A stretch of 63,058 bases of DNA, filler included, from Hausera hauseri (Eukaryota): the NCBI GenBank assembly GCA_046269625.1. It is 10 parts of 10 records of this genome, joined end to end, with 100 filler letters (N's around TTAATTAATTAA, not from the genome) between each part and the next. Parts side by side here need not be neighbours in the genome. Positions count along the whole stretch, not along the records: positions 1 to 13,702 come from JBJURY010766539.1; 9 more parts are not named here. One strand, written 5' to 3'. The translations under genes were made by a program, and so were the position numbers. A model generated the notes under the pieces. That model saw only the letters and a list, made by a program, of their open reading frames with translations. It was not told the DNA's origin and did not search any database. Below, one piece after another: positions 1-27,474 of this stretch; the first letter of the stretch is position 1; each line of letters begins with the position of its first letter.

Positions 1-2
1 AA

Positions 3-368
3 GATACTATAGAAAAACTCCAGCAAAAGATTAGATCTAAACTAAAAGAAAGTAAGACTAATACGTTAGAAGACGGGGATAAGATAGCTGAATTAAAACA
101 GCTATACCTCGAATTAAAAGAACAGCAGACTTGTGAAAAAAGACACAAAATGCTGAGTGAAAATGTTATCATAGCTCCAGTTGGTAGACCCAAAAAGTCC
201 CCCGAGTATGAATCAGAAACTGAAAAGAAGATTAAGAGGAAAGATAAACCTCTCATACAAGAATTAAAAACTCCTGAACTAAGTTTGTCTTCGGAAAGTG
301 AAGTTGAGAAAAGCGAATCTAATGGGAAAGGTGAACCAAAAGAAAAGATAAAGAGAACAAGAAAGTAG
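3..368 (+). CDS. 3' end of upstream ORF (possibly gag C-terminus), K/E-rich
   Basis: Frame open from base 3 to TAG at 366-368; overlaps the start of the -1 frame ORF, which is open from 335; no gag motif visible. Confidence 0.45.
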   Translation, partial: DTIEKLQQKIRSKLKESKTNTLEDGDKIAELKQLYLELKEQQTCEKRHKMLSENVIIAPVGRPKKSPEYESETEKKIKRKDKPLIQELKTPELSLSSESEVEKSESNGKGEPKEKIKRTRK

Positions 369-496
369 AACGGTCACCTGAGTTTGATAGTCCACCCATA
401 GATTTAGATAAGGATGGTATAGAAATAGTTCGGAAGATATCCGGCTATGCCAACCAAGAATTAATTGATGGAACACAGTTTAAGCAGGACCTTTCA

Positions 497-3400
497 ATGT
501 TATTATCACCGACAATTAACCACCATCAATTTGCTAATTTATTGGACTTATTGTTAGTGTATGCTGCAGGCACAAGTCCATACCAGAATATTATACGGTA
601 TATAATTTATCGTTATGCAGATAAAGTAAGCAGAATTGGAGAGAACCCAGAAGTAATAGTTACTCTTCAGCAATACAATCAGGACTTTTACGTCCTAAGA
701 ATGAAGTCGTCAGATACGATAGCCTTTTTAAAGCATAGAATTAATGAAATAAAACAATCTCAAGGAGAACTAGACTTGCGTTTCTATGGACGAACGCTGA
801 TGGATCATGAAACCTTATATGAGGTAGGTATCTGGGAAAACAGATATAATCCAGTATGTATTACTTATAGACAGCCCGAGCAAGAGGTAATTGATGAGAT
901 CATAATGGATGTTAGGCGAAAAGAAACGGAAGAAGCTGAACATCATCAAGAAGTAAGAACTGAAATGAATATTCCTATATCTGAGCAAATACAAACAGAT
1001 AAAAAACCCCGTGGAAGACCGAAAGGTACGACAAAACTTTACCAATTAAAAGGCAGAAAAGCCAGAGATGACGAAGTTGTTCGGAGATTGCTAACAACAG
1101 AAGATGAGTATGATGTAGATAATGTATCATTAACAACATTACTACAAACCTTGTTAGCAAGAATACACAATGCATTTGTTGAGTTCAATACCAATTTACA
1201 AATACCTGATGCACTAATGCAAGCTATAAGAAACGAAATTGCAAAGATTAGTGAGCAATTTGCAGATATCCCTACGGATGAGAGAATAAATGAAATTCAA
1301 GAAAGGGATATTTTATCAAGAATGATGGGAACCGGTATATCCCGAAATAAAATTATAACGGCCATATCGTATCTCTTGTATAAAATAATAGTCATGAACG
1401 GTGTGAATCCGAATCAAGAAGAAATAGAAAGAAACATAGAAATTGCTACCAAAGCGTTAAAGGCCAATGTTGAAGGATGGGTAAAATGTAGAGGTGGATG
1501 GATCACTAGTTTGATTCATACGACAATACATGAATCGGTGCCAGTTACACAACGACAAACGGAATATCTTCCACCTCAACGACCAGAGAGGCAACAAAAT
1601 GTACAACCAGATTTTGATCTATCGTGGTTAACTAAAGTTATACCCATACTTCTCTTATTCAGTCTTATGCCAAAAACACTCTCTATCATTGCTTATGATT
1701 GCAGTCAAGCTAAGGAAGGTCCTATATATTCCTTGTTGGATTTAGAAAAGTGTCCATTTGCTAATCCGGCATCATTAACTACAATAACAGATAAGGATTA
1801 TTATGTTTATCAGGAATCGGAGTTTGTAAAAACCAAAGTGAAAGAATGTTTTGTTCGAAGAAACCAATTCCATTTTATCTGCGGATATTGGTATAGGAAT
1901 TCGGCCATAGTAGAACCGACTACTCCGTTTGAGCCACTCCCTATAAGCAAACGAATGTGTATAGAGGCCTTCGTAACAAAACAAATTAACATCGGAAGTA
2001 TTCGATTAAAAGCTCAAAAAGGAAAAATTATCAACAAGAGGATATTTGTGGCTGGAACAATTGACAAAACAGGCTACTGTAAAGGACAATCCTACATTAT
2101 AAATGGTGAAATGTTGGATAATATAGTAGCTATTGAGGATTATCAAGTTGAGTTGAGAGAGTATGATGCTCTCTTTGAGTTATCATCAGGAAAAATGATG
2201 ACATTTCCTGAATGCGATTACTACAACAAGGAATGTGACACTGGAGAATCAATTATGTCATATGAAGTGGATAAGGATCAATGCCAATTAGCCTTTTTAA
2301 GAAGTGGGAAGTTTAATAAAACGAAAGGAAAGATATACAAAGAAGAGATATCGAAGAGTAGATTAGATCGAATATCAGATACGATTGAAACACCAACCAT
2401 AATATATTCGGCCGATCCAAGCGAAGGTATGAGATTTAAAATAGAAGGTAAAACTAAAAGATGTAACCAAATAGTATATCGAACAAATTATAAAGGTATA
2501 TTTCTATCAATAGATAAAATAAAGGAAGCAAAGAGAAATATAGACAAATCGGAAGTAAAGCCACATTTGTATTTCGATAACAAGATTGACTTTATCTACC
2601 ACTTCCAACAAGAAAATATCTATGCAATGTATAGAGAAATAATACTAAATGATTGTAAACTGAACAAAGAGATTATTAGGAATCGAATATATTTGTCAGC
2701 AATAACGGACGGTATAATGAAAGATCCAGCAGAATCACCCGATACAGAAGGAAAGTTTGCCAGAACAATGGGTGAAACCCTCGTAACTTTCGAGTGTGCA
2801 AAAGTAGCAGTTAAATTAAGACCTATTAAAGATTGTACTATGGAACTACCCGTCTGGTATAAAGAGAAACCACGTTTTCTACAACCAATTACTAGGATAT
2901 TGTTGGATCCTATGGAAAAGCCACTTGTACACCAGAACTGTACATATACTATGTCACCAACGTTCAGGTTGACCAATGATTATTGGATAAGCATGCCCGG
3001 TAAAGAACGGGTGACCACACCCAGAAGAATTAGTTTAATAAACCTAAAGACTGAACAAACCTATAAGCCATTGACAGACTTAGTAAAAATGGGTGTATAC
3101 TCCGAACAGGATATGGAAAATCATAGAAGGATGATGATGGTCCCACAACAGAGACAAAAAGTCTTAACAGAAATGGCCATGAAGGTATTATCTGAACATA
3201 CCGGCAAAGCTAACTGGGAAAATTTGATGGGACCCGATTACGCAAAGAAAATTGCTAGAGATATATTTGCAACTGCATGGGGATGGTACATGTGGTTCGG
3301 CCAGTTTAACTCTGGATGGTTGGGATTTTATTATATCTTTGCCTTCATAAAAGCAATATTAACCATGATAACAAAAGGATATGGTATAAAGCAAGCTGCT

Positions 3401-6322
3401 GGATGCACATGGAAAATTATTTATGCGGTGATCCCATTCGTAGCTAGTTGTTTCTTAATAAAAAAAGATGCTGAGTGGAAACAGAAAAATAAAAATGATA
3501 ATAATGATGAACCATCAACAAAATTAATTGAGAAGATGGGAGAAATAAAACCTCAATCGCTTGAGAATACAAAAAAGACGTGGAGTTTGATTACTGCCCG
3601 AAGTAAGAAAAGAAGAACCTTACTTGCGGATATCCCTCAAATGAAACGATGGAACGAGTATCCAATGGAACAACAATGTTTTATGTCACCTAATGAATAT
3701 ATAGATGTACATTGTTCCAGTGATGTGGATAATTGCGAGTCAAAACATATGAAACTTACATTTTATCCAACGGCCCCAAAAGAGGCTCTGATAACAAGTA
3801 TTGACGGAGGAAAAGTAATTCCGAGAATAGTAATTTGGATAGACGGATATCCTCTTACTGCAATAATAGACACGGGAGCATCAGCTTCGATGATCTCTCG
3901 CAAACAGCTGCCAGAACAATTAAAGAAAAAGTTACAGAAACCTATAGAAGATCTCACAAATGTCGGTGCTTTTGGAACAAAGGTACAAGTGCGAGACATA
4001 ATAAAATGTGACACTAAAGTCCTGAATCAAAAATTCGAACAAGAATTCAGAATAGCGGATGAACTAGTAGCCGAAGCTATACTTGGGTGCGATGCATTGG
4101 CAAAAATGAAAGATATGTGTATCCATTTAGAAACTCAACAAATCCAACCTCTTCGAAAGATGAAAAATGGAAAGAAAGATACAGTCTCCATTAAAGAAGA
4201 TGTACTGATTCCGGCTAAAACAGAAGTTGTACTCAAAGCAATAGTCGAAGGAAGATATGAAGGTGAAGTTTATATAGAACCAAATATAAGTTTTATGACT
4301 AAGAACGAACTATGGATAGCTCATATGATTGACAATATCCGAGAACAACAAGTGATCGTCAGGATAGCCAATGTTTCAAATAAGTCTAAATTTCTCAGGA
4401 AAGGCACAAGAATTGCCTACGTTTACACTATAAAAGATGTAGGCAATAAGGCAACAGAAGATATTATTTCTATTGTACAGGAGTTATCCAATTTTATGGA
4501 AAGACAAAAACAAACTTCAAGAACCAAGTGCGATATACGATTCGAAACAGAACCGATGAATAAATTAAAAGGACATCTTAATAAAAAGAAGATAATAACA
4601 CAGTTAACTAAAACTCTAATTAATTGGAATGATTTTGATCTATTTGGCAAGGACAGTACATTAACAGATATAGAAAAAGAAGGTATAGTTAAAATATTAC
4701 AACAATATAAGGATACCTTCGCAATAGATGAATATGATATGGGTATCATACCAGTCATCAAGCATGAGATCAAATTAAAAGCCGGGATGGAAACCCCTAT
4801 TAAAAAGAGACCATACAGACTCAATTATGACAAAAGAGAAAAAGCCAAAGAAATAATAGCTGAGATGAGAAAATATGACATAATCAGACCCAGCAATTCC
4901 CCCTGGGCGGCTCCTATCGTTATGGTACAGAAGAAGGATGGATCCATTAGAATGTGTGTAGATTATCGTGCTCTTAATGAAGTAACGGTAGACAATACCT
5001 ATCCGTTACCCAGAATTGATGAGCTATTGGATAAATTAAAAGATAAAATGTTGTTTACTACATTAGATCTACAGAAAGGATTTTGGCAGATAGAGGTACA
5101 AGAAGAAGATAAACAAAAAACGGCCTTCGTCACAGCAGATGGACATTATGAGTTTAACCGAATGGCATTTGGAATGAAGAACTCTCCGGCAACGTTTCAA
5201 ACAGCCATGGATATAATAACAATGGATGCTCCACACATAATGTGTTATGTAGATGATGTGATAATTGCTTCAAGTGATTATAAACAACATAAGGAACATC
5301 TCAAAGATATGTTGGAGAGGTGTGCCCTTCTCGGTATAAAAATAAGTTTAAAGAAATGCTGTTTTGCTAGGACAAAAGTAGATTTTTTAGGCCATACGGT
5401 CAGTAGAGAAGGCATCAGTCCACAGATTGGAAAGATCAATAAAATACAGGATTTTCCAGTCCCAAAAACAGTGAAAGGAGTTCGTAAATTTCTCGGTCTT
5501 ACAGGATATTATAGAAAATTTGTTAAAAATTACCAACAAATAGCTTCTCCTTTACATTCGTTACTACAAGAAAACTCTAAACTAGTGTGGACCCAGGAAT
5601 GCCAAAAAGCGTACCAACAACTGAAAGATAGTTTGTTAGCCCCACCAATATTGGCTTATCCAAATATGTCTAAACCATATTTCTTAGCCACAGACGCAAG
5701 TAAAGTTGGAATAGGAGTTGTTTTATCTCAGAAGGATGATCAAGGACAAGAGCATCCTATATCATTTGGAGGACGAAAATTGAGAAAACACGAGAAAAAT
5801 TATTCTACAATTGAAAGAGAATTACTCGCGATCGTATATGCTTTAGAACAGTACGGACAGTATTTGTCGGAAACCAAACCAATTGTTATCTATACCGACC
5901 ATAAGCTGCTACAATGGTTAAAGAATCATAAAAATCCAAATAGTCGTTTGATGAAATGGGCAATGCTACTTCAACCTTACGACTTGAAGTTTGAATATAA
6001 GACTGGTAAGGCCAATGCAAATGCAGACTACATGTCCAGAATACCTGAGGACATAGATCAAGAGGAAGAAATAACGGATAAACCAGGCGTTATAGCAGCC
6101 ATCTGGAGTATTACGGAACATGAAAAATCTTTGCAACAAAAACAACAAGATGATGAACAAATAAGACAAATTATGGAATATATCCAAAAGAAAATTACAC
6201 CAAAAGATATTGATCTTCATACTCACTTAATAAAGTTTGCTGAAAACTATCAAATAAAAGATGGCATATTACATTACAATTATAAAGGAAAATTGGTTGT
6301 TGTTGTCCCCAAGAGGATATAA
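497..6322 (+). CDS. pol: Polyprotein part 1: Ubl, AT-hook, fusion glycoprotein, aspartic protease, RT, RNase H, start of IN (frame open from 335)
   Basis: PR IIDTGASASMI (~3869); RT SPWAAPIVMVQKKDG..MCVDYRALN and YVDD (5246-5257); RNase H ATDASKVGIG, YSTIERELLAI, TDH, NADYMSR. Confidence 0.93.
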   Translation: MLLSPTINHHQFANLLDLLLVYAAGTSPYQNIIRYIIYRYADKVSRIGENPEVIVTLQQYNQDFYVLRMKSSDTIAFLKHRINEIKQSQGELDLRFYGRTLMDHETLYEVGIWENRYNPVCITYRQPEQEVIDEIIMDVRRKETEEAEHHQEVRTEMNIPISEQIQTDKKPRGRPKGTTKLYQLKGRKARDDEVVRRLLTTEDEYDVDNVSLTTLLQTLLARIHNAFVEFNTNLQIPDALMQAIRNEIAKISEQFADIPTDERINEIQERDILSRMMGTGISRNKIITAISYLLYKIIVMNGVNPNQEEIERNIEIATKALKANVEGWVKCRGGWITSLIHTTIHESVPVTQRQTEYLPPQRPERQQNVQPDFDLSWLTKVIPILLLFSLMPKTLSIIAYDCSQAKEGPIYSLLDLEKCPFANPASLTTITDKDYYVYQESEFVKTKVKECFVRRNQFHFICGYWYRNSAIVEPTTPFEPLPISKRMCIEAFVTKQINIGSIRLKAQKGKIINKRIFVAGTIDKTGYCKGQSYIINGEMLDNIVAIEDYQVELREYDALFELSSGKMMTFPECDYYNKECDTGESIMSYEVDKDQCQLAFLRSGKFNKTKGKIYKEEISKSRLDRISDTIETPTIIYSADPSEGMRFKIEGKTKRCNQIVYRTNYKGIFLSIDKIKEAKRNIDKSEVKPHLYFDNKIDFIYHFQQENIYAMYREIILNDCKLNKEIIRNRIYLSAITDGIMKDPAESPDTEGKFARTMGETLVTFECAKVAVKLRPIKDCTMELPVWYKEKPRFLQPITRILLDPMEKPLVHQNCTYTMSPTFRLTNDYWISMPGKERVTTPRRISLINLKTEQTYKPLTDLVKMGVYSEQDMENHRRMMMVPQQRQKVLTEMAMKVLSEHTGKANWENLMGPDYAKKIARDIFATAWGWYMWFGQFNSGWLGFYYIFAFIKAILTMITKGYGIKQAAGCTWKIIYAVIPFVASCFLIKKDAEWKQKNKNDNNDEPSTKLIEKMGEIKPQSLENTKKTWSLITARSKKRRTLLADIPQMKRWNEYPMEQQCFMSPNEYIDVHCSSDVDNCESKHMKLTFYPTAPKEALITSIDGGKVIPRIVIWIDGYPLTAIIDTGASASMISRKQLPEQLKKKLQKPIEDLTNVGAFGTKVQVRDIIKCDTKVLNQKFEQEFRIADELVAEAILGCDALAKMKDMCIHLETQQIQPLRKMKNGKKDTVSIKEDVLIPAKTEVVLKAIVEGRYEGEVYIEPNISFMTKNELWIAHMIDNIREQQVIVRIANVSNKSKFLRKGTRIAYVYTIKDVGNKATEDIISIVQELSNFMERQKQTSRTKCDIRFETEPMNKLKGHLNKKKIITQLTKTLINWNDFDLFGKDSTLTDIEKEGIVKILQQYKDTFAIDEYDMGIIPVIKHEIKLKAGMETPIKKRPYRLNYDKREKAKEIIAEMRKYDIIRPSNSPWAAPIVMVQKKDGSIRMCVDYRALNEVTVDNTYPLPRIDELLDKLKDKMLFTTLDLQKGFWQIEVQEEDKQKTAFVTADGHYEFNRMAFGMKNSPATFQTAMDIITMDAPHIMCYVDDVIIASSDYKQHKEHLKDMLERCALLGIKISLKKCCFARTKVDFLGHTVSREGISPQIGKINKIQDFPVPKTVKGVRKFLGLTGYYRKFVKNYQQIASPLHSLLQENSKLVWTQECQKAYQQLKDSLLAPPILAYPNMSKPYFLATDASKVGIGVVLSQKDDQGQEHPISFGGRKLRKHEKNYSTIERELLAIVYALEQYGQYLSETKPIVIYTDHKLLQWLKNHKNPNSRLMKWAMLLQPYDLKFEYKTGKANANADYMSRIPEDIDQEEEITDKPGVIAAIWSITEHEKSLQQKQQDDEQIRQIMEYIQKKITPKDIDLHTHLIKFAENYQIKDGILHYNYKGKLVVVVPKRI
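650..868 (+). other. Ubiquitin-like domain within the polyprotein
   Basis: SSDTIAFLKHRI and LRFYGRTLMDHETLYEVGI align with ubiquitin PSDTIENVKAKI and LIFAGKQLEDGRTLSDYNI; no C-terminal GG. Confidence 0.75.
1001..1027 (+). other. AT-hook motif
   Basis: KKPRGRPKG. Confidence 0.7.
1625..3460 (+). other. Env-like class III fusion glycoprotein (chuvirus/Jingchuvirales G-like)
   Basis: Internal signal peptide WLTKVIPILLLFSLMPKTLS, then IIAYDC..YSLLDLEKC; Cys-rich ectodomain (KVKECFV..FICG, GETLVTFECAKV, CTMELPV..FLQPITRIL); C-terminal WGWYMWFGQFNSGWLGFYYIFAFI TM. Confidence 0.8.
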
Positions 6323-6327
6323 AACTA

Positions 6328-9300
6328 TTGTTAATACAATACCATGATGGTATGTTGGGAGGACATCAATCAAAGAAGCGAACATTGGGTAGATTGAGAA
6401 GAAAATATTACTGGCATAAAATGCCTAAAGATGTAGAAGAATGGTGCAAAAGTTGCCCCAAAAATACTGGCTCAAAAATTAAGGTCCCCCTTAAACCACT
6501 GGAGTGTCCACCAGCCCCAATGGAGTTCTCAGCAATGGACATTCTAGGACCGTTACCTATGACAATAAATGGAAACAAATATATGTTAGTATTTGTTGAT
6601 CTATTTTCCAGATGGCCGGTCGTAATACCAATACCAGACCAAAAAGCCCAGACGATTGCTCAGGCCTTTGTCGAGGAAATTGTTTTTAATTATGGAGCAC
6701 CAACCAAATTATTGACGGATCAAGCACCAAACTTCACAGGAGAAGTCATGGCGCAAATATCAAAAATATTTCAGGTATTACAATTAAAAACTACCCCGTA
6801 CCATCCTCAAACAAATGGAACAGTGGAAAGATTTAACGGAATTTTAACCAATATGTTAGCTACAATGGTCAATGAACGACAAGACGATTGGGATGAGTAT
6901 ATTAAACCATGCCTGTTTGCAATTAGAAACACAATTCATCCAGCAACTAAGGAAACACCTTTTTATTTGATGTATCTGAGAGATACTCATATGCCAATTG
7001 ATTTGGATTTTAAAATTCCAATTTCCCATTTAAAAGATCTGGAATATAAAGAATTGTTAGAAGAAAAATTAGGGTATGTATGGAATCTAGCGTCTCGTCA
7101 CATGAAGATATGTCAAAAAGAATATAAAGAACGATACGATGAAAAAGCGAAACCACATGACTTTAAACCTGGTGATAAAGTCATGTTACATACACCCTTA
7201 AATAAGAAAGGAAAGACACCGAAATTAGATAGACCATACAAAGGTCCATACATAGTTCAAAAAGCAGATGAAACTAACATCTATCTAAATAAAAATAAAA
7301 GAAATAAAATCGACCCTATAAAAGTTCATGTAAACAGGTGTAAACCAGCACCTATAGAGTCGAAAATAAGGAATGAAAACCTCAGTTCGTTATTAATGGT
7401 AATATTTATGACATTAACCTTAGTGACCGGTATATCAGCTCAAACATTAGATGTAAACTATAAGGCCGTACAAATTGGAAAATATCCCTGTATAAAAATT
7501 ACAGCCAATCGGAATCTGACAACAGATGAATATATACACATATTCATATCGAAATATCCGGTACTAGAGAAAACAACACCAGAAAATTGCGACTTATATT
7601 ATAATCACTCGGTACACATTTGTTGTGGACTTTCATTTGGAGAAACATATAGAATTCAGTATGCAACTGGGAAAAGTGATCAGAGTTACAGAACATATTT
7701 CTCCTTCCCTGGTACTACCCATCATTTTAATCGACCATATTTTCTTATTTCATTTTACCCTAAAATTATGAAAAATGGACCTTGTGTAACAGCGGAACCA
7801 GATGTTACAATTACGAGATATGTCACATTCAAATACATAATATTTGATGGTATTAACAGTATATACTGTAAACCAAATTATGAAAATCCATATATATGTT
7901 GTCCCATTGCCTTTGACAAGGAATATATGATATATTACTGGACTACATATAATGGCCAAACCTGGTCAAAAACATCAGATGGCCCGGAGATAATGGTAAG
8001 ATCTCCCCCTAAGAAAATTACAATCTCAACAAAGAAAACAATTACTTTAACAACAACACCCACTTTAGTAACCAGCCTAACAACTAAAGCCAAAAAATTC
8101 ATTAAAGAATTAGATATAATCATCCAACCTACAATTCATTCATTGGTTATTACGGCATCCGATTTAAAAACTACCAATATAAAATTTGAATGCTATCTTA
8201 ATTATAGAATAATTAGTGAAGGTGTACTAACTCCAGATGAACCAACATCATCTTGCTTATCTTTGAAAGCCGACACCAGTTACCAAGTTATTATAACAGA
8301 ACTAGATGAGGATGGACAAGTTTTACAGGTTCTTAAAAGGAAGGAGAAAACGTTGAAATTACCTATGATTAATACAGAAAGAGTTACGAAAATAGTTACT
8401 ACACAAAAATTTGAACAAACTTCAAATAAACATTCTTGGATAATTATTATATTATGTATTCTTTTAATATTGGTAGTCATATTAATACCTTTAACAATTT
8501 ACTGTTTAAAAATAAGGCGGCGACAGAACAGGGTAAGAAAAATGCTAAATCATTTAAAAATGTTAAAAGAAAACTCCCAAAACTCCTTATTAGATATAAG
8601 CGCGTCTGTTTTAGAAAATCCACGGCAAGTTGAAAAACTTACCGACCAAAAACGGCTAATCCGCCCGTTAAAAGACACGACCGTTTGTCTATGTACTCGA
8701 ATATACGATGAGGCCGCCAAAACCTTAGTGACCTATATAAGAATTAAACAATCAAAATACGATAATGTCCTATTCTTTAAAACCGCTTGGCTAATGCTAA
8801 TGTTTTTATTTTTAGTCCAAGAAGGTGCAGAACGAACTGAAAGGCCCAATGCTTTTTACAATCACATTTTGTCTAATTTATGGGCTACTTCTCATCAGAA
8901 CTATTGCTACTATGGAAAAGCTGTACTCATCCCCAATAACCTCAAGGGATATTCTATCCAGCAAAGAAGTGGTCTCATAGTAAAATTGCAACAGAGATCA
9001 ATTAATCTCTCCGATCTAATAAATACATCCGGATATACCTATGCTGTATATATCTCAGTCGCCAGAGGAATTATTCAACTCAAAAGTAAGTCACATGCAA
9101 CGGGAATCACGGATGTGATGGAGATCTTAAACCGAGTAACCGTTCGTTTGGACCCTCGACTATACCTTAACGCTACAATTACTATACGAACATGCGAAGG
9201 ATCATTCCCAATAATTTATATAGAAGTGATTAAAAAGGATCAAATACTTCGCTTGGATTACCAAATTCCAAAATTTATGACACCCAGACCTAAGGAAACT

Positions 9301-10221
9301 GATGTAGAAGCAGGGTTATCATTTATAAGAAGGCCAATAACTTCAAAAGAAGTAATAATAATAATGGCTTTGAATTCGATATATTTATTCACTTCAATCA
9401 GAAATACTGAGACAACTCCTGTAGAAGTAACGTTAATGAAGTTAAACGGTGAAATTATCCTGGATGAAATTCTATGTCCTAGGGAAAAAATTGATAACTA
9501 TAATACCCATATAACAGGGTTAAAAGAGGACCACATTATCGGTAAAAAAGATTTCTATCATGAAGAACCCCTTTTGAGAAAAGCAATTGTGGGAAAGGTA
9601 ATTGTAGGCATCGATGTTTATAACATCTTTGCAACCACATTCAGATACGACTATAACAATCTCTTGGGGATCAGGGAACTTTTATATCACAAGGATGTCA
9701 ATCCTCAGCGGATATATACAGCTAAACAAATTCTCACCCAATACAATGATAATAAATACCCTCAAAGGACTCGAGACAAAGCTTTGACCATACTGAAGAT
9801 TTATAACTCTATTTTCGAGTATCAAAATGAGAAATTCGAAGAACTAACAAGTTCAAGAGAATCAATGGATACACAACCAATCGCTGACTACCCAATCGCG
9901 CTAATTCCTACAGTGTCAACTCTACCTATCGATGATCAAACTGAAACATCCTCTTCCGTTCAGATAATGAAAGACTGTTCTATTGATCTGAAGCCGTTGG
10001 AATTAACCAGCTCTACTGAATCTATTCTCGTAGACCTTACGAAGACGACAAAAAGAAAAAAAATTCCGAAGAGAGAAACAATTACTCTGAAGAGACAGAT
10101 TAAAAAGAAAGGGCGAGTACTTCATATCAAATCCGTCGACTACCAAGACTCAAATGGAATTATAGAAGCCTACCCTTTGATGCTGCGGACAGCATCATCT
10201 AAGGAGGGAGGTGTCAAATAA
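6328..10221 (+). CDS. Polyprotein part 2 (after a 1-nt frameshift near 6312): integrase, signal peptide, 3 FN3-like repeats, TM, unknown domain, DEDDh-like domain
   Basis: H..H..C zinc-binding region; DDE residues AMDILGP, LTDQAPNF, GTVERFNG; GPY module KGPYIV; hydrophobic segments at 7381-7440 and 8437-8508. Confidence 0.88.
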   Translation: MLIQYHDGMLGGHQSKKRTLGRLRRKYYWHKMPKDVEEWCKSCPKNTGSKIKVPLKPLECPPAPMEFSAMDILGPLPMTINGNKYMLVFVDLFSRWPVVIPIPDQKAQTIAQAFVEEIVFNYGAPTKLLTDQAPNFTGEVMAQISKIFQVLQLKTTPYHPQTNGTVERFNGILTNMLATMVNERQDDWDEYIKPCLFAIRNTIHPATKETPFYLMYLRDTHMPIDLDFKIPISHLKDLEYKELLEEKLGYVWNLASRHMKICQKEYKERYDEKAKPHDFKPGDKVMLHTPLNKKGKTPKLDRPYKGPYIVQKADETNIYLNKNKRNKIDPIKVHVNRCKPAPIESKIRNENLSSLLMVIFMTLTLVTGISAQTLDVNYKAVQIGKYPCIKITANRNLTTDEYIHIFISKYPVLEKTTPENCDLYYNHSVHICCGLSFGETYRIQYATGKSDQSYRTYFSFPGTTHHFNRPYFLISFYPKIMKNGPCVTAEPDVTITRYVTFKYIIFDGINSIYCKPNYENPYICCPIAFDKEYMIYYWTTYNGQTWSKTSDGPEIMVRSPPKKITISTKKTITLTTTPTLVTSLTTKAKKFIKELDIIIQPTIHSLVITASDLKTTNIKFECYLNYRIISEGVLTPDEPTSSCLSLKADTSYQVIITELDEDGQVLQVLKRKEKTLKLPMINTERVTKIVTTQKFEQTSNKHSWIIIILCILLILVVILIPLTIYCLKIRRRQNRVRKMLNHLKMLKENSQNSLLDISASVLENPRQVEKLTDQKRLIRPLKDTTVCLCTRIYDEAAKTLVTYIRIKQSKYDNVLFFKTAWLMLMFLFLVQEGAERTERPNAFYNHILSNLWATSHQNYCYYGKAVLIPNNLKGYSIQQRSGLIVKLQQRSINLSDLINTSGYTYAVYISVARGIIQLKSKSHATGITDVMEILNRVTVRLDPRLYLNATITIRTCEGSFPIIYIEVIKKDQILRLDYQIPKFMTPRPKETDVEAGLSFIRRPITSKEVIIIMALNSIYLFTSIRNTETTPVEVTLMKLNGEIILDEILCPREKIDNYNTHITGLKEDHIIGKKDFYHEEPLLRKAIVGKVIVGIDVYNIFATTFRYDYNNLLGIRELLYHKDVNPQRIYTAKQILTQYNDNKYPQRTRDKALTILKIYNSIFEYQNEKFEELTSSRESMDTQPIADYPIALIPTVSTLPIDDQTETSSSVQIMKDCSIDLKPLELTSSTESILVDLTKTTKRKKIPKRETITLKRQIKKKGRVLHIKSVDYQDSNGIIEAYPLMLRTASSKEGGVK
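7381..8508 (+). other. Second type I membrane protein with three FN3-like repeats and a Thr-rich linker
   Basis: Repeated motif ICCGLSFGETYRIQY / ICCPIAFDKEYMIYY / SCLSLKADTSYQVII; TM WIIIILCILLILVVILIPLTIYCL followed by basic KIRRRQNRVRK. Confidence 0.65.
9350..9820 (+). other. REXO4/ISG20-like DEDDh exonuclease fold with catalytic residues substituted
   Basis: EVTLMKLNGEIILDEILCPREKIDNYNTHITGLKEDHI..KAIVGKVIVG resembles the REXO4-type RVSIVN..G..YDKYVKP.EPVTDYRT.VSGI....L..LKGRILVGH; ALNSI stands in place of ALDCE. Confidence 0.7.
10201..10211 (+). promoter_or_regulatory. Polypurine tract
   Basis: AAGGAGGGAGG immediately before TGTCAA. Confidence 0.75.
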
Positions 10222-10988
10222 ATGAAATCATTGAAGTGCTGTTTGATCAATAATATAACCATGAGTATTGAACATATGTGAAATTATTGAACAGATAATT
10301 AAAATTGATTGACTTATGGTTTTGCAGATTAAAAAGGATTTTCTTTTCATTTTTCTTTGACGATATCAACCATGTGTAATAATTAAAATAGATTTGTAAT
10401 TATCTCCTCATTTTTTTGACATATGTCACGGCTGTAGTTTTATTATAAATACCGTTACTATTCATACCATTGACACACAATTTTTGACTGAATACTGACT
10501 TCTGATACATTATGAATCTGACGTATGATAATTGTAAGTTATGTTTTTTTGTTCCTTTTTGTTCATATTTTCTTCTCGTATTTTGGTTGATTATTTAATT
10601 TAATATTTTATTAAATATTCCGATAGTTTCAGTTGTTTTGATTTATTGGTTTAGCGTAAAGTAATTAACTAAAAGGTACCGTATTGTAATAGAGATAAAT
10701 AAAATAAATTCAAGACAACCCCTTTTTGGTATACCTTCCTTTAATACAGGTCGGTTGTTAAAAATCACAATAAATAAGGGAGAGCGACGTCGGTGTACCT
10801 CCCGACCGAACTCACACATTAAGAAAAAGTAATTAAATAAAATTCCTGAATTTCGGCAGACCCACAGGCTGCCGAATACTCTGACTAATTAAATAGAACT
10901 TGGGACACGGAGAGGACCCAAGTTGAGAACTGATAGTATAAGTTTAAGGTCGTGAGACCAAATAAATTTTACACCTTCAAACTTATCA
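10212..10988 (+). repeat. 3' LTR (~777 bp)
   Basis: Starts with TG after the PPT; TATAAA ~10445; AATAAA motifs; ends ..CTTATCA, where homologous coding sequence of another element resumes; collinear with 11391-12090. Confidence 0.7.
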
Positions 10989-10989
10989 T

Positions 10990-11411
10990 AGAGATAAAGC
11001 CTTAGTTATTCAAAAGATTTATCGGTCAATCCCTGACTACCAAAAATAAGTGAAAAATCGAAAAACACGCCAATTAACGTACAAGTATTCCCACATCCAC
11101 CAGCACCTGTCCAACTAGCGCCAATTCAGACGCTTTCTCAAAGTGCATCGCCAAATAATTGGAAACATTTACTGCGTGATATCTTATTGTCTAATATCTC
11201 TACTCGTGATATTAATAACCTCATCAAAAACTACATACAACAAATACCAGATAAGAAAACAGTTACCATCAAACGAAAAATTATGGAGGATAATGAATGG
11301 ATAGAAGTTGATTCAGTAAGATACAAACGTGCCGATGGTTCCTTTATAATCTTCCCTCTTAAGCCGAGCGTAGCTTCTTCTAGGAAGGGATATATCGACG
11401 ATATAAACTGA
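10990..11411 (+). pseudogene. 3' polyprotein tail of a related element (end of exonuclease-like domain plus C-terminal motif)
   Basis: RDKALVIQKIYRSIPDYQ vs RDKALTILKIYNSIFEYQ; TIKRKI..EVDSVRYKRADGSFIIFPL..VASSRKG vs TLKRQI..HIKSVDYQDSNGIIEAYPL..TASSKEGG; one frameshift. Confidence 0.8.
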
Positions 11412-12090
11412 CTAAACTGTCCGCCAAATTCAAATAAACCAGACGAAATTGATCCGGTTAAGTATAAACTATGTAAACAATTTACATTGATGTGAAATTT
11501 AATTTTTCGATCTAATCTATGTGATCATTGATTTAATTTATTTCATGTGAAATTTAATTTCATTATTTTGAAATTTATTTTTTTTTTTATTGTAACTGAA
11601 CTCTTGATTTATATAAATACCACTCACATCTTAACAAGACTGACACAATCTTTAACAATTTATAATTTTTTGCACTGTAACTTTCATAGATGTATCCTTC
11701 CTATGATAGATGTAAACCTCATTTCTATTGTTATTTCGTTTGATTTCAATTGTTACAGTAGATTTCATTTTAATTCATATTAAAATTTTATATTATTGTA
11801 CTTTTATTCTTTTTAGTTGAGAGTAAATAAGTAAGTAGTTTTACATTAACAAGACTTACGAAACAATTTAATTAATATCTAATGGGTTCCCTCTTCGGTA
11901 TACCGCCCCATAAGGACGATTGTCTAAAATGATATAAATAAGGTAGACTATCCGTAGTATGCCTCCTAGCGATCAAGTCACACCGTAGGATCAAATAATA
12001 CAGAGTAACCCCACAGGTTACTGCGAGAATAATTAAAAATTAAGTTTAAAGTCGCGAGGCCTAAACTATTTAGAACTTTTAAACTTAACA
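11391..12090 (+). repeat. Diverged 3' LTR of the related element
   Basis: PPT AGGAAGGGA at 11382-11390; blocks TATAAATACC, GGTATACC, ATAAATAAGG, CCCACAGG and AAGTTTAA shared with the first LTR; ends AAACTTAACA. Confidence 0.65.
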
Positions 12091-12842
12091 TTAATGTAAA
12101 CTTCAGCATTTTTTACCTTCAAGAGTAATAATTTGTCCAGCCCCATTGACAGACATGCATCCCCATACCATCAAACCTGTTTCTACTGCTGTTGCACTTG
12201 TATGATAGTTCATTACCTGATTTATGTCAAACGTAAACTCTGCAATGTGAATACCTCAACATAATCATTGATTCGTCAGTTCAAAGGAATGTGTGCCAAA
12301 ATTTTCATTCTTTTCCTCAAATGTAGGGTCTTTTAAGTGCAAAGCGACAATTCAATCCTGAGCTATGTAATCTTCTGCATATTGTGCTGCTTAACCGTGC
12401 ATTTTTGTCCTCACTGATAATCTGTGTATGTATTTTTGGTGCACAAGTGAACGGGTTTTGGTTTGAAAGTACTTTAATCTGAGTATACACTCTTTTGGTA
12501 GTCGTTTGTAGCCTCCTTGGTCAACTTCATCGATTTAAAAGACCATTTGTGGAAAATTTATTGATAAATCTATTGATCGATATGTCAGGTTTTCCAAAAA
12601 TATTTGCTATGTACCGATTTGGAAAAACGCATTCCTTTAATTTTATAATTGCTCTTTTCTCTGAGACGGTCAATTGCTAGAATTTTGCCATTTTGTGCTA
12701 AAATTTGAATTAAAATTTACTTTTACTAATAATGCCGCTTAAATTCAAATCTTACTTCAAGCCGTATAATAGAATGTAGAACTTATTTGTTAAAATGATT
12801 ACATTATAAATATTTATTAAAAGTTCAAAGTAATTCAGTTAT

Positions 12843-13113
12843 TTAACTTCAAATCTACTCTTAGCCTGTTGTACATATTGATGACGTTTTGTGATATTCG
12901 AGCAGCCTCAATAGACATTTTGACCGCAAGATTGCACCATGCTCGATCAGAGATCCCAAGCTTAAGAAAGGTGTTGTTGTTCTCTGGTCACCAGGAACCT
13001 TTGATTAGATGTTTGTACCAACTGGTGTTTTCGTTTATTACTTGATCGATTATCTCTTCACCATCGAATGGACTTTTAATATCTATAATGTAGCAGAAGC
13101 CTTTGGCATAGAT
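12843..13113 (-). pseudogene. 3' fragment of an RLE-endonuclease (R2/NeSL-like) non-LTR retrotransposon
   Basis: Minus-strand translation CYIIDIKSPFD...GSW*PENNNTFLKLGISDRAW resembles the restriction-like endonuclease C-terminus; contains a stop. Confidence 0.45.
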
Positions 13114-13804
13114 TATTATTATTATTATATTAATCTCTGGTGTAGGTAGCACTTGCGCCTTTGCCTACAATGGGAAGTCATAGTGACAACATTTTTGTTA
13201 AAACATTTTCCAAGTCTAAAAGGATGAAGGTTTATCGGAAGAAGATTTAGTTTAGCCACGTAAAAAATTGCCATGTGTAGCCAGACAAGGAAGTATCTAC
13301 ATTTGTCATGCATCTGGAGGAAAGGGAATGACGACCGACTGATGATGCTCACTTATTTTGACGTTTGTCCGCTAGCCAGTCCTAATAGTAATATTCGTTA
13401 TACATTCCGGAATTTTAGAGGATACAGAATGGAATTGGTCAGAACCAATGAAACCTGTTTGATTTGTCGTAATAATAGTGAGTTTGACTTTGCTACTGCC
13501 ATCGAGTTGGAAGAATATGGTTATATTAAGACGTCGAATTTGCCGGTTGGACAGTCGAATCTTCATCCAATGGCACACACACCTAAGAGCGGACATATAT
13601 GATAGATTTTTTGTTCTCAACCTGCAGCAGTAGCGACCTTTCGATTCATATCATCTGGGCTGTTAAGGAATTAAAAGATCTGGGTGACTGATCATAGGAG
13701 TANNNNNNNNNNNNNNNNNNNNNNNNNNNNNNNNNNNNNNNNNNNNTTAATTAATTAANNNNNNNNNNNNNNNNNNNNNNNNNNNNNNNNNNNNNNNNNN
13801 NNTA

Positions 13805-14113
13805 ATGCAGCAACATGCTAAAATGCGAGACATTAAATGTCCGATAGTGTTTCCAGCCAAAAATAAAAGCCGTCCCGCAGGATTACGCTCATCGTGGGAA
13901 AAAGCTTTAAAACAAGCAGAAATTAGCGACTTTAGGTTCCATGATCTTCGGCATAGTGCCGCTTCTTATCTAGCCATGAACGGCGCGAGTATGGCAGAAA
14001 TTGCCGAGGTGCTTGGACATAAAACATTAGGGATGGTAAAACGCTATGCGCATTTATCGGAAGCTCATACCGCAAAAGTCGTGGAAAGCATGAATAAAAG
14101 AATTTTTGGGTAG
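13805..14113 (+). CDS. Bacterial/phage tyrosine recombinase (integrase), C-terminal part
   Basis: FRFHDLRHSAASYL..EVLGHKT..MVKRYAH carries H-x-x-R, H and the catalytic Y; 5' end cut by the gap. Confidence 0.92.
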   Translation: MQQHAKMRDIKCPIVFPAKNKSRPAGLRSSWEKALKQAEISDFRFHDLRHSAASYLAMNGASMAEIAEVLGHKTLGMVKRYAHLSEAHTAKVVESMNKRIFG

Positions 14114-15042: not shown

Positions 15043-15537
15043 TGTTTGTCGGCTGCAAGGTATAGTCGGTTTGAGCCGGTCCGTCAGGTCAATTGTGCCC
15101 CGCTACTTGCTTCCATTGTCTTTTGGTGATAATCTTAGCCTTTACACACTGAGATCTGTTTAATTGTTGTGACGGCAGTGGAGTGTACGTTGCGGCGTCC
15201 TACGATCGGCCCCGCCACTGCTTTCACCAGTTTTTGGTGAAATCAACTTCCGATTTGTGCTGACGGAAGTCCGTTGTGTGTTTCTTGAAATAACGTGTGA
15301 GCCATAGTGTATGAATTTGATCATCATCAATCGAGAAACAGTTGGTTGCATAATTTTAGAAATAATTAAAATGTAAACGCTGATCATCATCAATCAGAAG
15401 AGAAGCTGGTACAGCCACTTGATAGTTTAGTTGATAGTCATTGTTGATCATCATCAATCAGCAATAAGGTTGAGAAGACGGTACAGCACTAGTGATAATA
15501 AAGTATAATCATTGATTATAATAAGTTCATAGCTGAC

Positions 15538-16712
15538 TTGAAAGAGTGTATAGAAGACAAGATGGCGGAAGCACCATCTGTACCAATGGTTGCTATTCCC
15601 CAACAGCAACTAGACACCATGTTAGAAGAGTATGGCGCCATGAGAGCGGCATACGAAGAAACAAGGAAAATGTTGGAAAATTTACAAGCAGGAAGCCAGA
15701 CCCCAATTAAGGAAGGGAAGCTTCATGTAAAGTCAGGTTTGGGTAAAGAAGACCCAGTGCGAAAGGCCTTAGATAAGATAGAAACAATGGTGACTAAGGT
15801 TGACATGAATAGTAGGCACCAGAATATTAGAACCTTTGTACAACCTTTCAGTGGGAAAGAAGCGAAGACATTTAAGACTTGGATATCACAAATCGAGAAA
15901 TACGCATACTTGGTGAAGGCCACAGAAGAAGAGAAAAAGGAACTGGCGTACATGACCTCAGATGCGTTGGCTAATGACTTCATAAGAAGAAGATTTAGTT
16001 CCCACCCGGAAGAAACGGGACGAATTTAAGAAAACACTGGCCAATAGATACGCTGAAGTCAGTGACATGCATTATGCAGCGGCAGCACTTAGAAAGAAAA
16101 AACAGGAGCGAGAAGAAGCGTTACAACTCTACGGTGACCGAATGCTAAATATGGCAGAAGAGGCATACTCTGGACAGAATATTATGACAGAAGAGATAGG
16201 AAAGCTATTAATACCGATATTTACAGACGGTCTAAGAAACACAAGAATCAAGATAAAGTTAATGAAAGACGAGCCAAAAACAATACAAGCAGCCATTCAA
16301 ACTGCAGTGGAAGAAGAGAATTTTAGTAAAAGGGTGAACATGAGGTTAGGCAGAGAAAAATATGACGACAGGGGAGAAGAACAAATGGAGATAGACCAAT
16401 ACAGACCAAGATGGCACAGAAAGTTGCATGAACACGAGAAGCATAGCGGAAGAAGATAGGAAAACAGTACATGAAGTAGAGAAGAGAATACAGTGCTACA
16501 AGTGCGGCAGAGCGAATCACATAGCAAGGGAATGCAGAAGTAAACCAGTAGAACCGAATTCTACTAGACCGAATGCAGGAAATCAGAGAAAGTGCTATAA
16601 ATGTGGCAAAGAAGGACATTTTGCCAGGGTGTGTAGGTCGAATGAAGTACATGAGCAAAGAGACAGCAGAAATCAGACGCAACAGGGAAACGGAAACCCC
16701 GCTTTGAAGTGA
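15538..16712 (+). pseudogene. gag: Gypsy element B gag (frameshifted) with two CCHC zinc knuckles
   Basis: PFSG..FKTWISQIEKY; EQMEID; CYKCGRANHIAREC; CYKCGKEGHFARVC. Confidence 0.88.
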
Positions 16713-19700
16713 GCTTCCGGTGAAGGGGGGAGCTAAAGGAAGCTAAACGAGAAGTGAAATTTGAAAGAAAAAATGAGCTAAAGGAAGCAATTAATAGTAT
16801 AAATCGAGAAGAACATGAACCAGGTTGCCAAGCAGGCGTTAGACTACGAAAACGAAGTAAAGAGAAAACTGGGCAAGGTAGGAGAATAGTGAGAACCCAA
16901 CAGTACAATACAAGATATGATAACTACAAGGAAAATCGAGAAGCGAGACTTGAAAGAAAAAGAGAACACAATGAAGCAAACCACAGTAGAAACGGAAAAC
17001 AAGAACACACACAAAGCAGAAGAACGGTAAAGATGCGACAACCTAATGTAAGACAACATAGTCGGAAAAGGTACGAGAATGAACACACCACACCGCTAAG
17101 AAGGGGAACTAGATATGAAACACGATTTATAAGGAAAAGAGACCCAAGTGAAATAAATCCTAGAACAAGAATTGGACAACGAAACAGCCGAAGAAGATGT
17201 ATGAACCAAGATAGATACGGAACCAACTTTGAAACGAGAAGAGAAAAACCCAAAAGGATAAGTCGAAACTTGAACACCAGAAGTGATAGACACTGGCTGA
17301 GGACCAACCAACCAAATCAGCAAAAGATAAGAAGAACAATTAGTCAAGATATGCAACTACGCCGAAATCAGAACAGCCAGCGACAAAACCAAGAATCAGA
17401 ACCTATGGAAATAGACGAAACCGAGAAAAAAAGATGTGTAGTGAAAGAACCAAAACACAAACCCCAAAAGCAAGTCCATCCCATTCCCGAACACAAGAAC
17501 GAAGTTAACACCCATCACCCACATCCCAGAGAACAACGACCCTATCCCAACCAACGAAGAGAAACAGTTACAAGAAGGAAACCACCGCGAATATCAGCCA
17601 GAAACGGAAACAACCAAGTAAGGGAGAAATCAAAGAAAATATACGAAATTAACTACACCGAAGACCCAAGCTCCTGCATCGTATACTTTGGGAAGGTTAG
17701 AGTGAGATGTCTTATAGATACCGGTGCCCATGTAAGCATCATAAGTGAAAGGATCTATAAAATGCTGAAAAAACCGAGTAGGTTAGTAAACCAAGACATC
17801 GACCTAAGATCAGTATCAGGGAGCGAATTGAAAGTATTAGGAAAAACGCAGTTAGAGTTCAAGATTGGCAAGAAAACGATGAAACATCACTTCTTGGTAA
17901 TCAAAAACATGTGCCGGAGCGCAATTATAGGTAGAGACTTTCTACAAAAGAACAACGCCCGCATTTATTTTGACCTGAAAAAGATAAGGATAGAAGATGA
18001 ATATGTAGATTTGGAAGACGACATCCACATAGCTTCAATAATACAGGTCAAGCAAAAGATTACCATGAAACCACATTCTCTGAACATAGTGATAGCGGCA
18101 ATGAAAGGAAACCAATATTGGGAAGAAGGAGAAAGCATACTGGTAACAGCATTAGAAGAAAAAGACATAATCGACGAGCCTGGATTACAATCCATATGTA
18201 GGATAGTGAAGTTAAACAGAAGAAAGGAGATACCAGTGATGGTGGCAAACCACACCGGAAAGACAATTACTTTGCAAAAAGGCTGCATTGTAGCGAAAGT
18301 GGAGAAACTGCAGACAACGAAATGTGAAACAATCGCTCGATATATGAAAAGCAACCAAAGAGAAAAGAAATTAGAAATAGAAACAGAAGAGAGATGACAA
18401 AGAAGAATACACAGAGACAAGGTGCTAAAGGAAATTAGAGATGGAGTGTGGAAACGGAAACAAAGCAAAACAGTAGCAGAAGTAACAAGAGATGATGAGA
18501 GAACCAGAAAACTACTAGAAACAATAAAAGTAGACTCAACACACAGAGAGAGAATAGAGAAGTTTGTTAGAAAACACCCCGATGTATTTGCACTATCAGA
18601 TATGGAACTCGGAAGAACGCAGACGGTCACGATGAGAATTGATACTGGTGACCATCCACCAATTAGTCTAAAACCATATCGAACACCACTTGGGAATCGA
18701 GAAATTGTGGAAAAAGCCATATTGCAGGCTGGAATTATCGAGAGGACCAGATCATCACCGATAGTTATCGTTCCAAAGAAAGATGGGAGTCATCTGTTTT
18801 GCGTCGACTATAGGGCACTGAACGCAATAACAGCCAATGTGAGTTATCCAATGCCCTTAATTGATGACATTCTGGGAGTACTAGACGGGACTACTTACTT
18901 CACCACATTAGACGCGAGGTCAGGGTTTTGGTGCATCCCGATGTCACCGGATGCGAAGATGAAGAGTGCATTCTGTACGCATACTGGATTGTATGCATGA
19001 ACGTCATGCCATTTGGGTTGAAAGGATCACCAGCGACCTATATGTCGCTAATGAACATCGTTCTATAAGGTATGCAACAGTACGCACTGGCCTACATCGA
19101 TGATATCCTTATCTTTACAAAGGGAGACATTGAAGATCACTTAGAACATGTCGAGAAGGTGTTTGACCGACTGAGAGAGCACAAAGTGAAACTCAAACTA
19201 AGTAAATGTGAATTTTTAAAAGAAGAAACGAAATATCTAGGATTTGTAATCAACAGACAAGGGGTACAACCAGATAAAGACAAAGTGACTGCGATACGAT
19301 CGATGGCAGCACTGAAATCTACAAAAGAAGTTAGAGAACATGCGGGTATTACCGTAGATTTATTCCCAACTTCTCGGTAATAGCGGAACCGCTGGTGGCG
19401 TTAACATGAAAATTCGCAAGGTTACGATGGGACGAAAACTGTCAAAAAGCTTTCGAGTATTTGAAGGAAAGTTTGACCATAGTGCCATTGCTGACCTATC
19501 CGAACGTTAACAAAGAATATGTGTTATACACAGACGCATCAGAATACGCGGTAGGAGCCGTATTAGCACAAGAAGACGGTACAGAAATCATCAAAGACAA
19601 AGAAGTACCCAGAGAGAAACCGATATACTTCTTATCACACAGGTTAACGAAGTCACAGAGGAAATGGTCAGTGACGGAGAAAGAAGCCTATGCAATTCAC

Positions 19701-20737
19701 TATGCCTTGCAGAAATTAAATTTTTATTTACATAACAGTAAATTTACCATCAAGACCGACCACATACCACTCAAGGCAATGCTAAGAGCTGACATGCAGA
19801 ACAAAAGAATACAGCCATGGATAATAAATTTACAGGGATACAATATGAATATTGAATATATTCCAGGCCGTGAAAACGCAATTGCTGACCTATTGTCATG
19901 AATACCGGACAAACACAGTGAGGAAGATAACCAGAGAGAAGAGATAGAAGAAGGTACACCGGAAATCGACGACCACACATTACAAATATCAGCAGTCGAT
20001 TCAACGGCAATGAAGGGTAACAAAACGGAAGAGTCAGAAACAGACAAAAGCGAGATAGACGAAAACAAAATAGATATGCGAGAAGAACAACAAAAAGATG
20101 AAGAATTACGTGGCATTATTGAAGACTTAAAATCAGGCATGGAAGAAAAATTGAAAAAGTGGAAAAGGTTTATGTTAGACAATGAAGAATTATATAGAAT
20201 TGGAGGAGAAGAGAAGAGAAATTTTCAGTTATGTGTACCACACCACATGAAACATATGGTGATACAACAGCATCACGATCAATTAGGACACCTCGGAAGA
20301 GATAGAACAGCAGAGCTAATAAGTAGGAAGTACTATTGGAAGAATATGTTACAAGAGATTGGAAATTATATTAAGAATTGTGAGATCTGCAAATTACGAA
20401 ACATGGAAATATTGAAACATCCGATCCAAGAACCAGACTATGCAAGGTTACCAATGGAAAAAGTAAGCCTAGATCTTTCCGGACCGCACCCATTAACAGC
20501 GTCGGGAAACAAACATATTCTACATATGGTAGACATATATAGTGGATGGCCAGAACTCTATGCCGTGCCAGATAAGACAGCTGAAAACATAATAAACATC
20601 TTGTTGGGAAAATTCATACTGCGATACGGATGCCCGAGAATAATTATAACTGACAACGGTCGCGAGTTTGTAAACAAGGCTATAAAAGACGCATTGAAAG
20701 AAATGAACATCAAACATGTGAGAACATCTGTGTATAA
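16685..20737 (+). pseudogene. pol: Gypsy element B pol (basic spacer, PR, RT, RH, IN) with multiple stops; cut by the gap
   Basis: LIDTGAHVSII; FCVDYRALN; YIDD; YTDASEYAVG; HHDQLGH..CEIC; SLDLSGP; ITDNGREF. Confidence 0.9.
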
Positions 20738-22958: not shown

Positions 22959-23003
22959 CTTCTGTATCTGCTCTTATACTAGGTGTTATCTGTGGTAGAT
23001 GTA

Positions 23004-27106: not shown

Positions 27107-27474
27107 AAAGTTTTCTCATATACCGTACAATCAGTCTAATATAATGTATTCAAGTCAGTCTGACCATACATTAGTGTAAAATTCATCAAATCTAACATAA
27201 TATATTTATGTCAATCTGACCATACACTTTTCTATAAACTCATTATGTCTTGCTTGCCTTTCTATTCAGCTTCAGGTTTGTAAGGTCATGGGACCATTAA
27301 TAAATATATACATATATGTGTGACACTTTTACTTCTTATGTGCTCCCCTATAATATTCTACAATATTCTTTTNNNNNNNNNNNNNNNNNNNNNNNNNNNN
27401 NNNNNNNNNNNNNNNNTTAATTAATTAANNNNNNNNNNNNNNNNNNNNNNNNNNNNNNNNNNNNNNNNNNNNGC

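Follow-up and report, generated by a model that had tools for sequence, protein, structure and literature searches.

A defective Burro-like GAG-ENV-POL Ty3/Gypsy element of Hausera hauseri, with a class III-type glycoprotein in frame before pol and a predicted second membrane protein after integrase

The stretch of Hausera hauseri DNA described here (assembly GCA_046269625.1; 63,058 nucleotides, hereafter the window) is composed of ten records joined with N-run linkers (positions 13703-13802 and eight similar spots), and its parts are not physical neighbours. The first record (JBJURY010766539.1, positions 1-13702) holds on its plus strand a long terminal repeat (LTR) retroelement of the Ty3/Gypsy type, in which an envelope glycoprotein (env) is encoded in frame ahead of pol. 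The record starts inside the element, whose 5' end lies beyond the record edge; the LTR and polypurine tract evidence therefore concerns the 3' end only, and the sequence at hand contains no 5' LTR, primer-binding site or target-site duplication. The features recognised in this record are the following (aa, amino acid positions in the frame concerned; P and L numbers designate relatives).

3..362, plus strand: upstream polyprotein piece in another frame, with a coiled coil and the first GRP motif; 70% identical to P0001 aa 249-339
404..652, plus strand: conserved helical domain, paired with the ubiquitin-like domain; aligned across relatives
653..874, plus strand: ubiquitin-like (Ubl) domain; Pfam ubiquitin at aa 119-167, E 0.002 and 2e-4, under the cut-off
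1001..1024, plus strand: AT-hook-like motif RGRP (aa 226-229), read from the sequence
1130..1519, plus strand: Bcl-2-like domain (aa 266-395), between the AT-hook and the env signal peptide
1622..1690, plus strand: predicted internal signal peptide of env, from hydropathy; relatives have a hydrophobic stretch ahead of a conserved YDC
1691..3304, plus strand: ectodomain of a class III fusion glycoprotein (gB/chuvirus G type), from PF24664, structure model and Foldseek
3314..3460, plus strand: env transmembrane (TM) helix (aa 994-1012) and a second hydrophobic stretch with two Cys, from hydropathy
3821..4111, plus strand: aspartic protease (PR) with intact DTGA; Pfam RVP, E 2e-9
4160..4480, plus strand: weak, degenerate dUTPase-like segment between protease and reverse transcriptase; its sole PDB match is a dUTPase, E 1.2
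4925..5980, plus strand: reverse transcriptase (RT, with YVDD) and RNase H (RH); Pfam RVT_1, E 4e-38, and RT_RNaseH, E 4e-37
6286..7365, plus strand: integrase (IN), beyond the frame break near 6306, from Pfam; DDE and GPY intact
7381..8505, plus strand: predicted type I membrane protein, in frame after integrase, from hydropathy
8506..9330, plus strand: region after the TM helix with one weakly hydrophobic stretch; no Pfam family, no homologue, ESM Atlas matches below 0.8
9340..9840, plus strand: ISG20-like exonuclease domain, likely inactive; human ISG20L2, E 3e-5, and ISG20, E 5e-4
10201..10211, plus strand: polypurine tract (PPT), from the sequence
10212..10988, plus strand: 3' LTR, TG...CA, 777 base pairs; similarity to the adjacent LTR-like copy stops at the same motif
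10989..12090, plus strand: 3' remnant of a diverged relative, with a frame tail, a PPT-like tract (11382-11390) and LTR-like sequence

Most of these features lie in two long plus-strand frames, 335-6322 (1995 aa, stop to stop) and 6286-10221 (1311 aa), which overlap, with a single frame change near 6306, and in which no stop was found across 3,306 codons. The first frame runs through Ubl, AT-hook, Bcl-2-like domain, signal peptide, glycoprotein, TM helix, PR, RT and RH, and the second through IN, a second signal peptide, an ectodomain, a TM helix and the ISG20-like domain, the PPT and 3' LTR coming after. Pfam detected ubiquitin (weakly), PF24664, RVP, RVT_1 and RT_RNaseH in the first frame, and Integrase_H2C2 and rve in the second. 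Hydrophobic segments were located by hydropathy at aa 427-456, 994-1012 and 1024-1042 of the first frame and at aa 366-384, 719-737 (a strong TM) and 826-844 of the second. All these data agree with the domain order and the in-frame env-pol arrangement of the original prediction, made from the sequence alone, in which all the named parts were recovered and the Bcl-2-like domain was overlooked.

That prediction also took a single frame from 335, broken once. The break near 6306 was found as described, with a second one near 358, where frame 3-362 continues off the 5' end of the record. P0001 is a close relative (79-84% identical over the shared part) that continues upstream into Gag with a CCHC knuckle, in a single frame ordered Gag-CCHC-Ubl-Bcl-2-env; since frame 3-362 matches P0001, the overall order of the element is gag-cargo-env-pol, Gag and its CCHC knuckle being assigned by proxy to a position upstream, beyond the record. 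Contigs of the same family differ from the window copy by an indel at both frame breaks, and the zinc finger of integrase, short in comparison with each of the relatives examined (7/7), has lost its last Cys. With two frameshifts and a damaged zinc finger, the window copy is defective. The PR, YVDD, RNase H and DDE motifs are all present, and the lack of stops indicates that the copy was recently inactivated; the young age first proposed is thus retained in part, for a copy that no longer has an intact reading frame. By summing the parts, the intact polyprotein would reach about 3,600-3,700 aa.

The glycoprotein is, according to its structure model, of class III fold, like herpesvirus glycoprotein B (gB) and chuvirus G. 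Indeed, Pfam Monjiviricetes_fusion (PF24664) covers aa 436-1067 with an E value of 2e-76. A full-library search returned 988 env relatives at E 0.001, of which the best 150 were listed and 121 were aligned with the window ectodomain; 12 Cys are nearly invariant in this alignment of 122 sequences, and the model built from it has a mean predicted local distance difference test (pLDDT) of 90.5. Compared by Foldseek with the PDB, the model matched herpesvirus gB in all of the matches listed (36/36; best E 1e-12, TM-score 0.47), and in the viral library its best matches were chuvirus-type glycoproteins (E 4e-36, TM-score up to 0.72). By sequence, env had no match in the PDB. The structural comparison, set in advance as the check on the predicted class III fusogen, therefore came out in its favour. 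A furin-like RLDR lies at aa 676-679 of the glycoprotein, within a low-confidence loop of the model. The first segment of 3314..3460 corresponds to a hydrophobicity peak in the relatives, and the second hydrophobic stretch is probably a cytosolic amphipathic helix.

The junction between env and pol was followed in 21 env-bearing relatives scanned with Pfam (6 from earlier searches and 15 of the 150 listed, mostly picked by length). The protease follows env in frame in 14 of the 21, and both PR and RT do so in 8/21; among the remaining seven, five end in or just past env and two resemble stand-alone glycoproteins. Three relatives (P0005, P0046 and P0139) run from Gag through IN in one unbroken frame, and the frame shared by env and pol persists among relatives that are 26-38% identical. 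A decayed env-then-protease element, with an env 27% identical, lies in another record of the window (36853-40815, minus strand). The same junction in 14/21 relatives, in this second element and in the planarian element Burro leads us to reject an origin by assembly chimera or nested insertion: the env-pol junction is real, as the original prediction had it. In one sequencing run, which may be the source of the window, 27,607 related contigs fall on the stretch, 1,814 of them at least 99% alike; these are short and their number is not a copy number, but their abundance is in keeping with a large family. One of the relatives, P0127, is an animal-type retroelement protein whose NCBI entry stands under a Flavobacteriaceae metagenome-assembled genome, probably by contamination.

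Pol is ordered PR-RT-RH-IN, with YVDD, DDE and GPY, and is of Ty3/Gypsy (Metaviridae) type, as was predicted; the best-scoring pol matches carry the same Gypsy-type domain set. Segments resembling the dUTPase-like one also occur in P0004, P0005 and P0127. Two to four tandem protease domains follow env in P0002, P0003, P0004, P0123, P0124, P0126 and P0134, and P0004 and P0124 have a further protease domain after IN. At the 3' end, the stop codon of frame 6286-10221 falls within the LTR, next to which the element appears to have been inserted into its own kind, the LTR adjoining the 3' remnant of a diverged relative. The protein tail of this remnant (10989-12090) aligns with the C-terminus of the element itself (0 of 500 shuffles as high), and its LTR-like part scores 100 against the element LTR (shuffle mean -99, standard deviation 19; 72% identical over aligned bases). 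The 3' end of the frame is therefore old, since its C-terminal tail, with the PPT and LTR, is also retained by this diverged neighbour.

Ahead of env, the helical domain gave no PDB match at E < 0.05 in a profile search, and its identification as TFIIS-N/LEDGF-IBD was dropped on that account. The Ubl domain is conserved among relatives, including L001 (E 0.005) and P0001, and the helical-Ubl unit is duplicated in P0005 (aa 357-681). GRP motifs stand at a comparable position in P0001, P0003, P0004 and L001. The Bcl-2-like domain, which retains a BH2-type GGW and has SRNK for the NWGR of BH1, was found in 6 relatives: a four-member profile recovered three more proteins (P0123, P0125 and P0129; E 1e-22, 7e-12 and 0.014), and a six-member profile, without P0001, matches Bcl-xL at E 6e-6, with 58 of the 60 PDB matches listed being Bcl-xL or Bcl-2 and a designed helical repeat protein as the top one. 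Pfam Bcl-2 matches five of the six members (best E 2e-5), the match of the window itself being under the curated cut-off, and the region had no usable match in the ESM Atlas. The domain is absent from P0002, P0003, P0004, P0124, P0126, P0127, P0128, P0134, P0135, P0139 and P0046.

After IN, the predicted type I membrane protein consists of a signal peptide, a beta-rich ectodomain with two repeated domains (D1-D2 repeat, z 8.6, 0/300 shuffles), a Thr-rich stalk, a third domain with a Cys-Tyr pattern similar to that of the repeated ones, and a TM helix. The ectodomain had no PDB match and reached Pfam Fn3_Dep-1 at E 8e-4, under the cut-off, so that its Fn3 reading is a lead only. Among the six relatives that run past IN, a signal-like segment occurs there in P0005, P0124, P0127 and P0135 and in neither P0004 nor P0046, and a later TM exceeds the threshold in three of these four. 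No homologue of the cargo after IN was found among proteins of 523-1665 aa, and its single-sequence fold (pLDDT 34.7) is unusable. In the ISG20-like domain, the Asp of the HDF motif aligns with an Ile, and the nuclease, judged on its residues, is likely dead. A DEDDh nuclease-like region was seen by eye before env in P0135 (aa 110-290), and two degenerate ISG20-like segments precede the Ubl and Bcl-2 domains of P0129 (aa 370-800; weak, 3/300 shuffles as high); nuclease cargo may thus recur at differing positions in the clade. Over 8227-10054, the contigs add up to a much lower depth than over gag-env-pol, an observation not used as evidence (the parts are not rankable), and the differences listed in the cargo (6/11 at third codon positions) are too few to use.

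Several described elements resemble this one. The NERV metaviruses of nematodes, the work of Sacco and colleagues in 2022, reportedly have env before pol in a continuous gag-env-pro-pol frame and are said to be restricted to nematodes; to our knowledge, Bcl-2, Ubl or post-IN cargo has not been noted for them. The env-before-pol order of the original prediction is not new: in-frame env was described in 2019 for planarian Burro/GYPSM1, a single Gag-Ubl-BCL2-Env-PR-dUTPase-RT-RH-IN polyprotein with a CCHC-bearing Gag, a Ubi/SUMO-like domain and a mononegavirus-type env (Arkhipova and Yushenova 2019, PMC6431247), and GAG-ENV-POL Gypsy elements with env of the herpes simplex virus/gB type are known from Platyhelminthes, Bryozoa and Nematoda, with 45 and 215 copies of two in Schmidtea (Chary and Hayashi 2026, PMC13524379). 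Compared by description, our element has the Ubl, BCL2-like, env, PR, dUTPase-like (weak here), RT, RH and IN parts of Burro in the same order (PMC6431247). However, Burro has a frame of 4,873-5,140 aa in an element longer than 30 kb, against the shorter 3,600-3,700 aa proposed here, and its MATH, BIR, ankyrin, Smc and AIR1 cargo had no Pfam match in either window frame or in P0001 (an accessory reading frame may lie upstream of the record). As it misses these two features, size and MATH/BIR/ankyrin cargo, the element was filed as a Burro-like GAG-ENV-POL errantivirus and not as Burro. It shares with the gB-type errantiviruses a Gypsy pol, a class III env between signal peptide and TM, and env before pol. 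The published ones have uninterrupted frames and are multicopy at >98% identity (PMC13524379); the window copy has two frameshifts, and its family is probably multicopy, 1,814 of the 27,607 short contigs being at least 99% alike.

The membrane protein after IN and the ISG20-like domain are not mentioned in the available parts of the Burro account (PMC6431247), and the word 'exonuclease' is absent from the main text of PMC13524379, the covered parts of which do not discuss cargo. No published description of the two was found, although other Burro or NERV literature or Repbase may hold one; they are thus the parts of the element for which we found no description, the env layout being already published. 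Elsewhere among LTR elements, the bdelloid Gypsy elements Juno and Vesta have a DEDDy exonuclease as open reading frame 3 behind pol (Rodriguez 2017, PMC5408684), which recalls our element by a DEDD-family nuclease downstream of pol and a dUTPase between PR and RT. Their nuclease is RNase D-like, with intact catalytic residues, in a separate reading frame and without TM (PMC5408684), unlike the ISG20-like, degenerate domain of the window, in frame behind a membrane protein. The Anakin elements also combine a chuvirus-type glycoprotein with an LTR retrotransposon (Dezordi 2020, PMC7642597), but these are BEL/Pao elements; the pol of our element is not of BEL/Pao type, its RT_RNaseH, H2C2 and GPY being Gypsy-type.

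The other records of the window, examined by eye except for the satellite and the Gypsy pair, resemble an animal genome with many Gypsy and Polinton pieces. Positions 13803-14113 hold a C-terminal piece like a bacterial phage-type tyrosine integrase, in a record shared with a Gypsy element (a chimera, or else symbiont DNA carried by the host genome). Two decayed Gypsy elements (15502-20737 and 21000-27115) share about 70% identity, and neither has an env-like match to the studied element. Polinton/Maverick-like genes (integrase, capsid, protease and protein-primed polymerase) lie at 27473-32656, 42173-44374 and 59608-62924, two of the polymerase copies being about 78% identical. On the minus strand of 33863-35765, intronless importin-7-like and alanyl-tRNA synthetase-like fragments are interleaved beside a RING-like piece and were possibly captured from host genes. 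Finally, positions 52676-58949 are taken up by a tandem satellite of 68-bp units, which also shows higher-order periodicity at about 269 and 540 bp.

From these sequence comparisons, we suggest that the record contains a defective copy of a Burro-like GAG-ENV-POL Ty3/Gypsy element, the intact members of which would be translated at the endoplasmic reticulum as one polyprotein and spread as enveloped particles from cell to cell in an animal host; we give this reading a probability of roughly 0.62. The single chain would be cut by signal peptidase and by its own protease and would thread the membrane four times, aa 1024-1042 of the first frame and aa 826-844 of the second being taken as non-spanning; a cytosolic Pol requires this of the former, and the status of the latter is uncertain. 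The Gag-Ubl-AT-hook-Bcl-2 piece would remain cytosolic, anchored by the cleaved env signal peptide, which would also supply the C-terminal anchor usual in the Bcl-2 family, and env would go to the lumen. As the hydrophobic segments imply, in line with the Pol between two membrane anchors of the original prediction, PR-RT-RH-IN would loop out into the cytosol from the env TM to the second signal peptide, followed by a lumenal second ectodomain and a cytosolic tail with the dead nuclease. Two cuts by signal peptidase, and release of capsid, nucleocapsid, RT and IN by the element protease, would bring Gag, Pol and Env together on one membrane at about 1:1:1 without frameshift or splice. The Bcl-2-like, Ubl, second surface and nuclease-like parts would be accessory, host-modulating cargo, and the second surface protein may be a receptor-binding partner or a decoy.

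Several observations weigh against this proposal. Signal peptides and TM helices were called from hydropathy only. In the RT/RH tree (IQ-TREE, LG+G4, a selection of 23 of the 123 rows), seven env-in-frame relatives form a group (93/97) and the window sequence stands on a long branch outside them; a single clade of the window and these seven is not rejected (approximately unbiased test, p 0.41), but is not shown either. By identity, the closest row is P0004 (52%), and FastTree on the 123 rows likewise leaves the window RT unplaced, these trees containing no named Burro or errantivirus sequence. The post-IN ectodomain is not significantly alike to those of the relatives (z at most 2.8): on sequence grounds the layout is shared and homology is unproven. 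The altered BH1 motif makes BH3 binding by the Bcl-2-like domain doubtful. Lastly, Chary and Hayashi state that the transmission route of the gB-type elements is unknown (PMC13524379).

The best-surviving alternative, which we nevertheless consider unlikely, is that the family moves only within the cell, env and cargo being kept for the survival of the host cell or the element (anti-death, cell fusion, RNA transfer), as reported for the inhibitor-of-apoptosis domain of Burro1. In planarians, the BIR/RING region of Burro1 reportedly has a protective effect on stem cells (PMC13465017, citing Dev Cell 2026), and no free virus with such an env, nor any env relative, was met in the viral contigs searched, a blank of little weight. 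Against it, env keeps its whole fold, with 12 Cys common to viral glycoproteins, and remains in frame with pol across the divergent relatives described above.

It is improbable, in our opinion, that the frame is real but that splicing or read-through governs the proportions of the products, most Gag-cargo, Env and Pol being made from separate messages or past a leaky stop and the full chain being rare. Gypsy elements do not usually have Gag and Pol at 1:1, which counts in favour of this explanation, as do P0002 and P0003, which end after their protease domains and before RT, and L001, in which one in-frame stop (3058-3060; decay or read-through) separates the Bcl-2-like domain from the env signal peptide. 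The eight relatives unbroken from env through RT and the three unbroken from Gag through IN speak for the single chain, and lone stops may be decay.

We hold it very improbable that the post-IN part is a private capture or a nested piece of this copy or subfamily, with no function in the family. This would fit the absence of cargo homologues in the protein search, the weak likeness to the tails of relatives, the lost nuclease residues and the lack of such a tail in P0004 and P0046. It has to face about 950 stop-free codons that continue the IN frame into the LTR, the signal-like segment at the same place in 4/6 relatives, the same C-terminal tail retained by the diverged neighbour (10989-11400) and, weakly, the nuclease-like segments before env in P0129. 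As for an assembly chimera or a one-off nested insertion at the env-pol junction, the record does stem from short-range assembly of repetitive DNA, and no single contig covers the whole stretch, but the recurrence of this junction in independent relatives, in the second window element and in the published Burro (PMC6431247) leaves it practically no probability.

With env in frame before pol already published, the element adds a member and not a concept. It indicates that the Burro plan (Ubl-Bcl-2-env-pol) also comes in a compact version, the cargo of which can be exchanged, and that members of the clade repeatedly carry a second membrane protein behind integrase. The proposed topology predicts a balance of Gag, Pol and Env without frameshift or splice. 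How gB-type errantiviruses enter cells without the herpesvirus partner proteins is an open question (PMC13524379), for which the post-IN protein is a candidate partner. More tentatively, and as a possibility that we rate well below even odds, compact Burro-like elements may form a clade of complex enveloped invertebrate retroviruses with two surface proteins cut from a single chain. The one ahead of Pol would be a gB-type fusogen and the one behind IN a variable, Fn3-like protein for receptor binding or decoy, a pairing reminiscent of herpesvirus gB and its partner; the signal-peptide-anchored Bcl-2-like domain and the ISG20-like pseudo-nuclease would act as accessory counter-defence genes.

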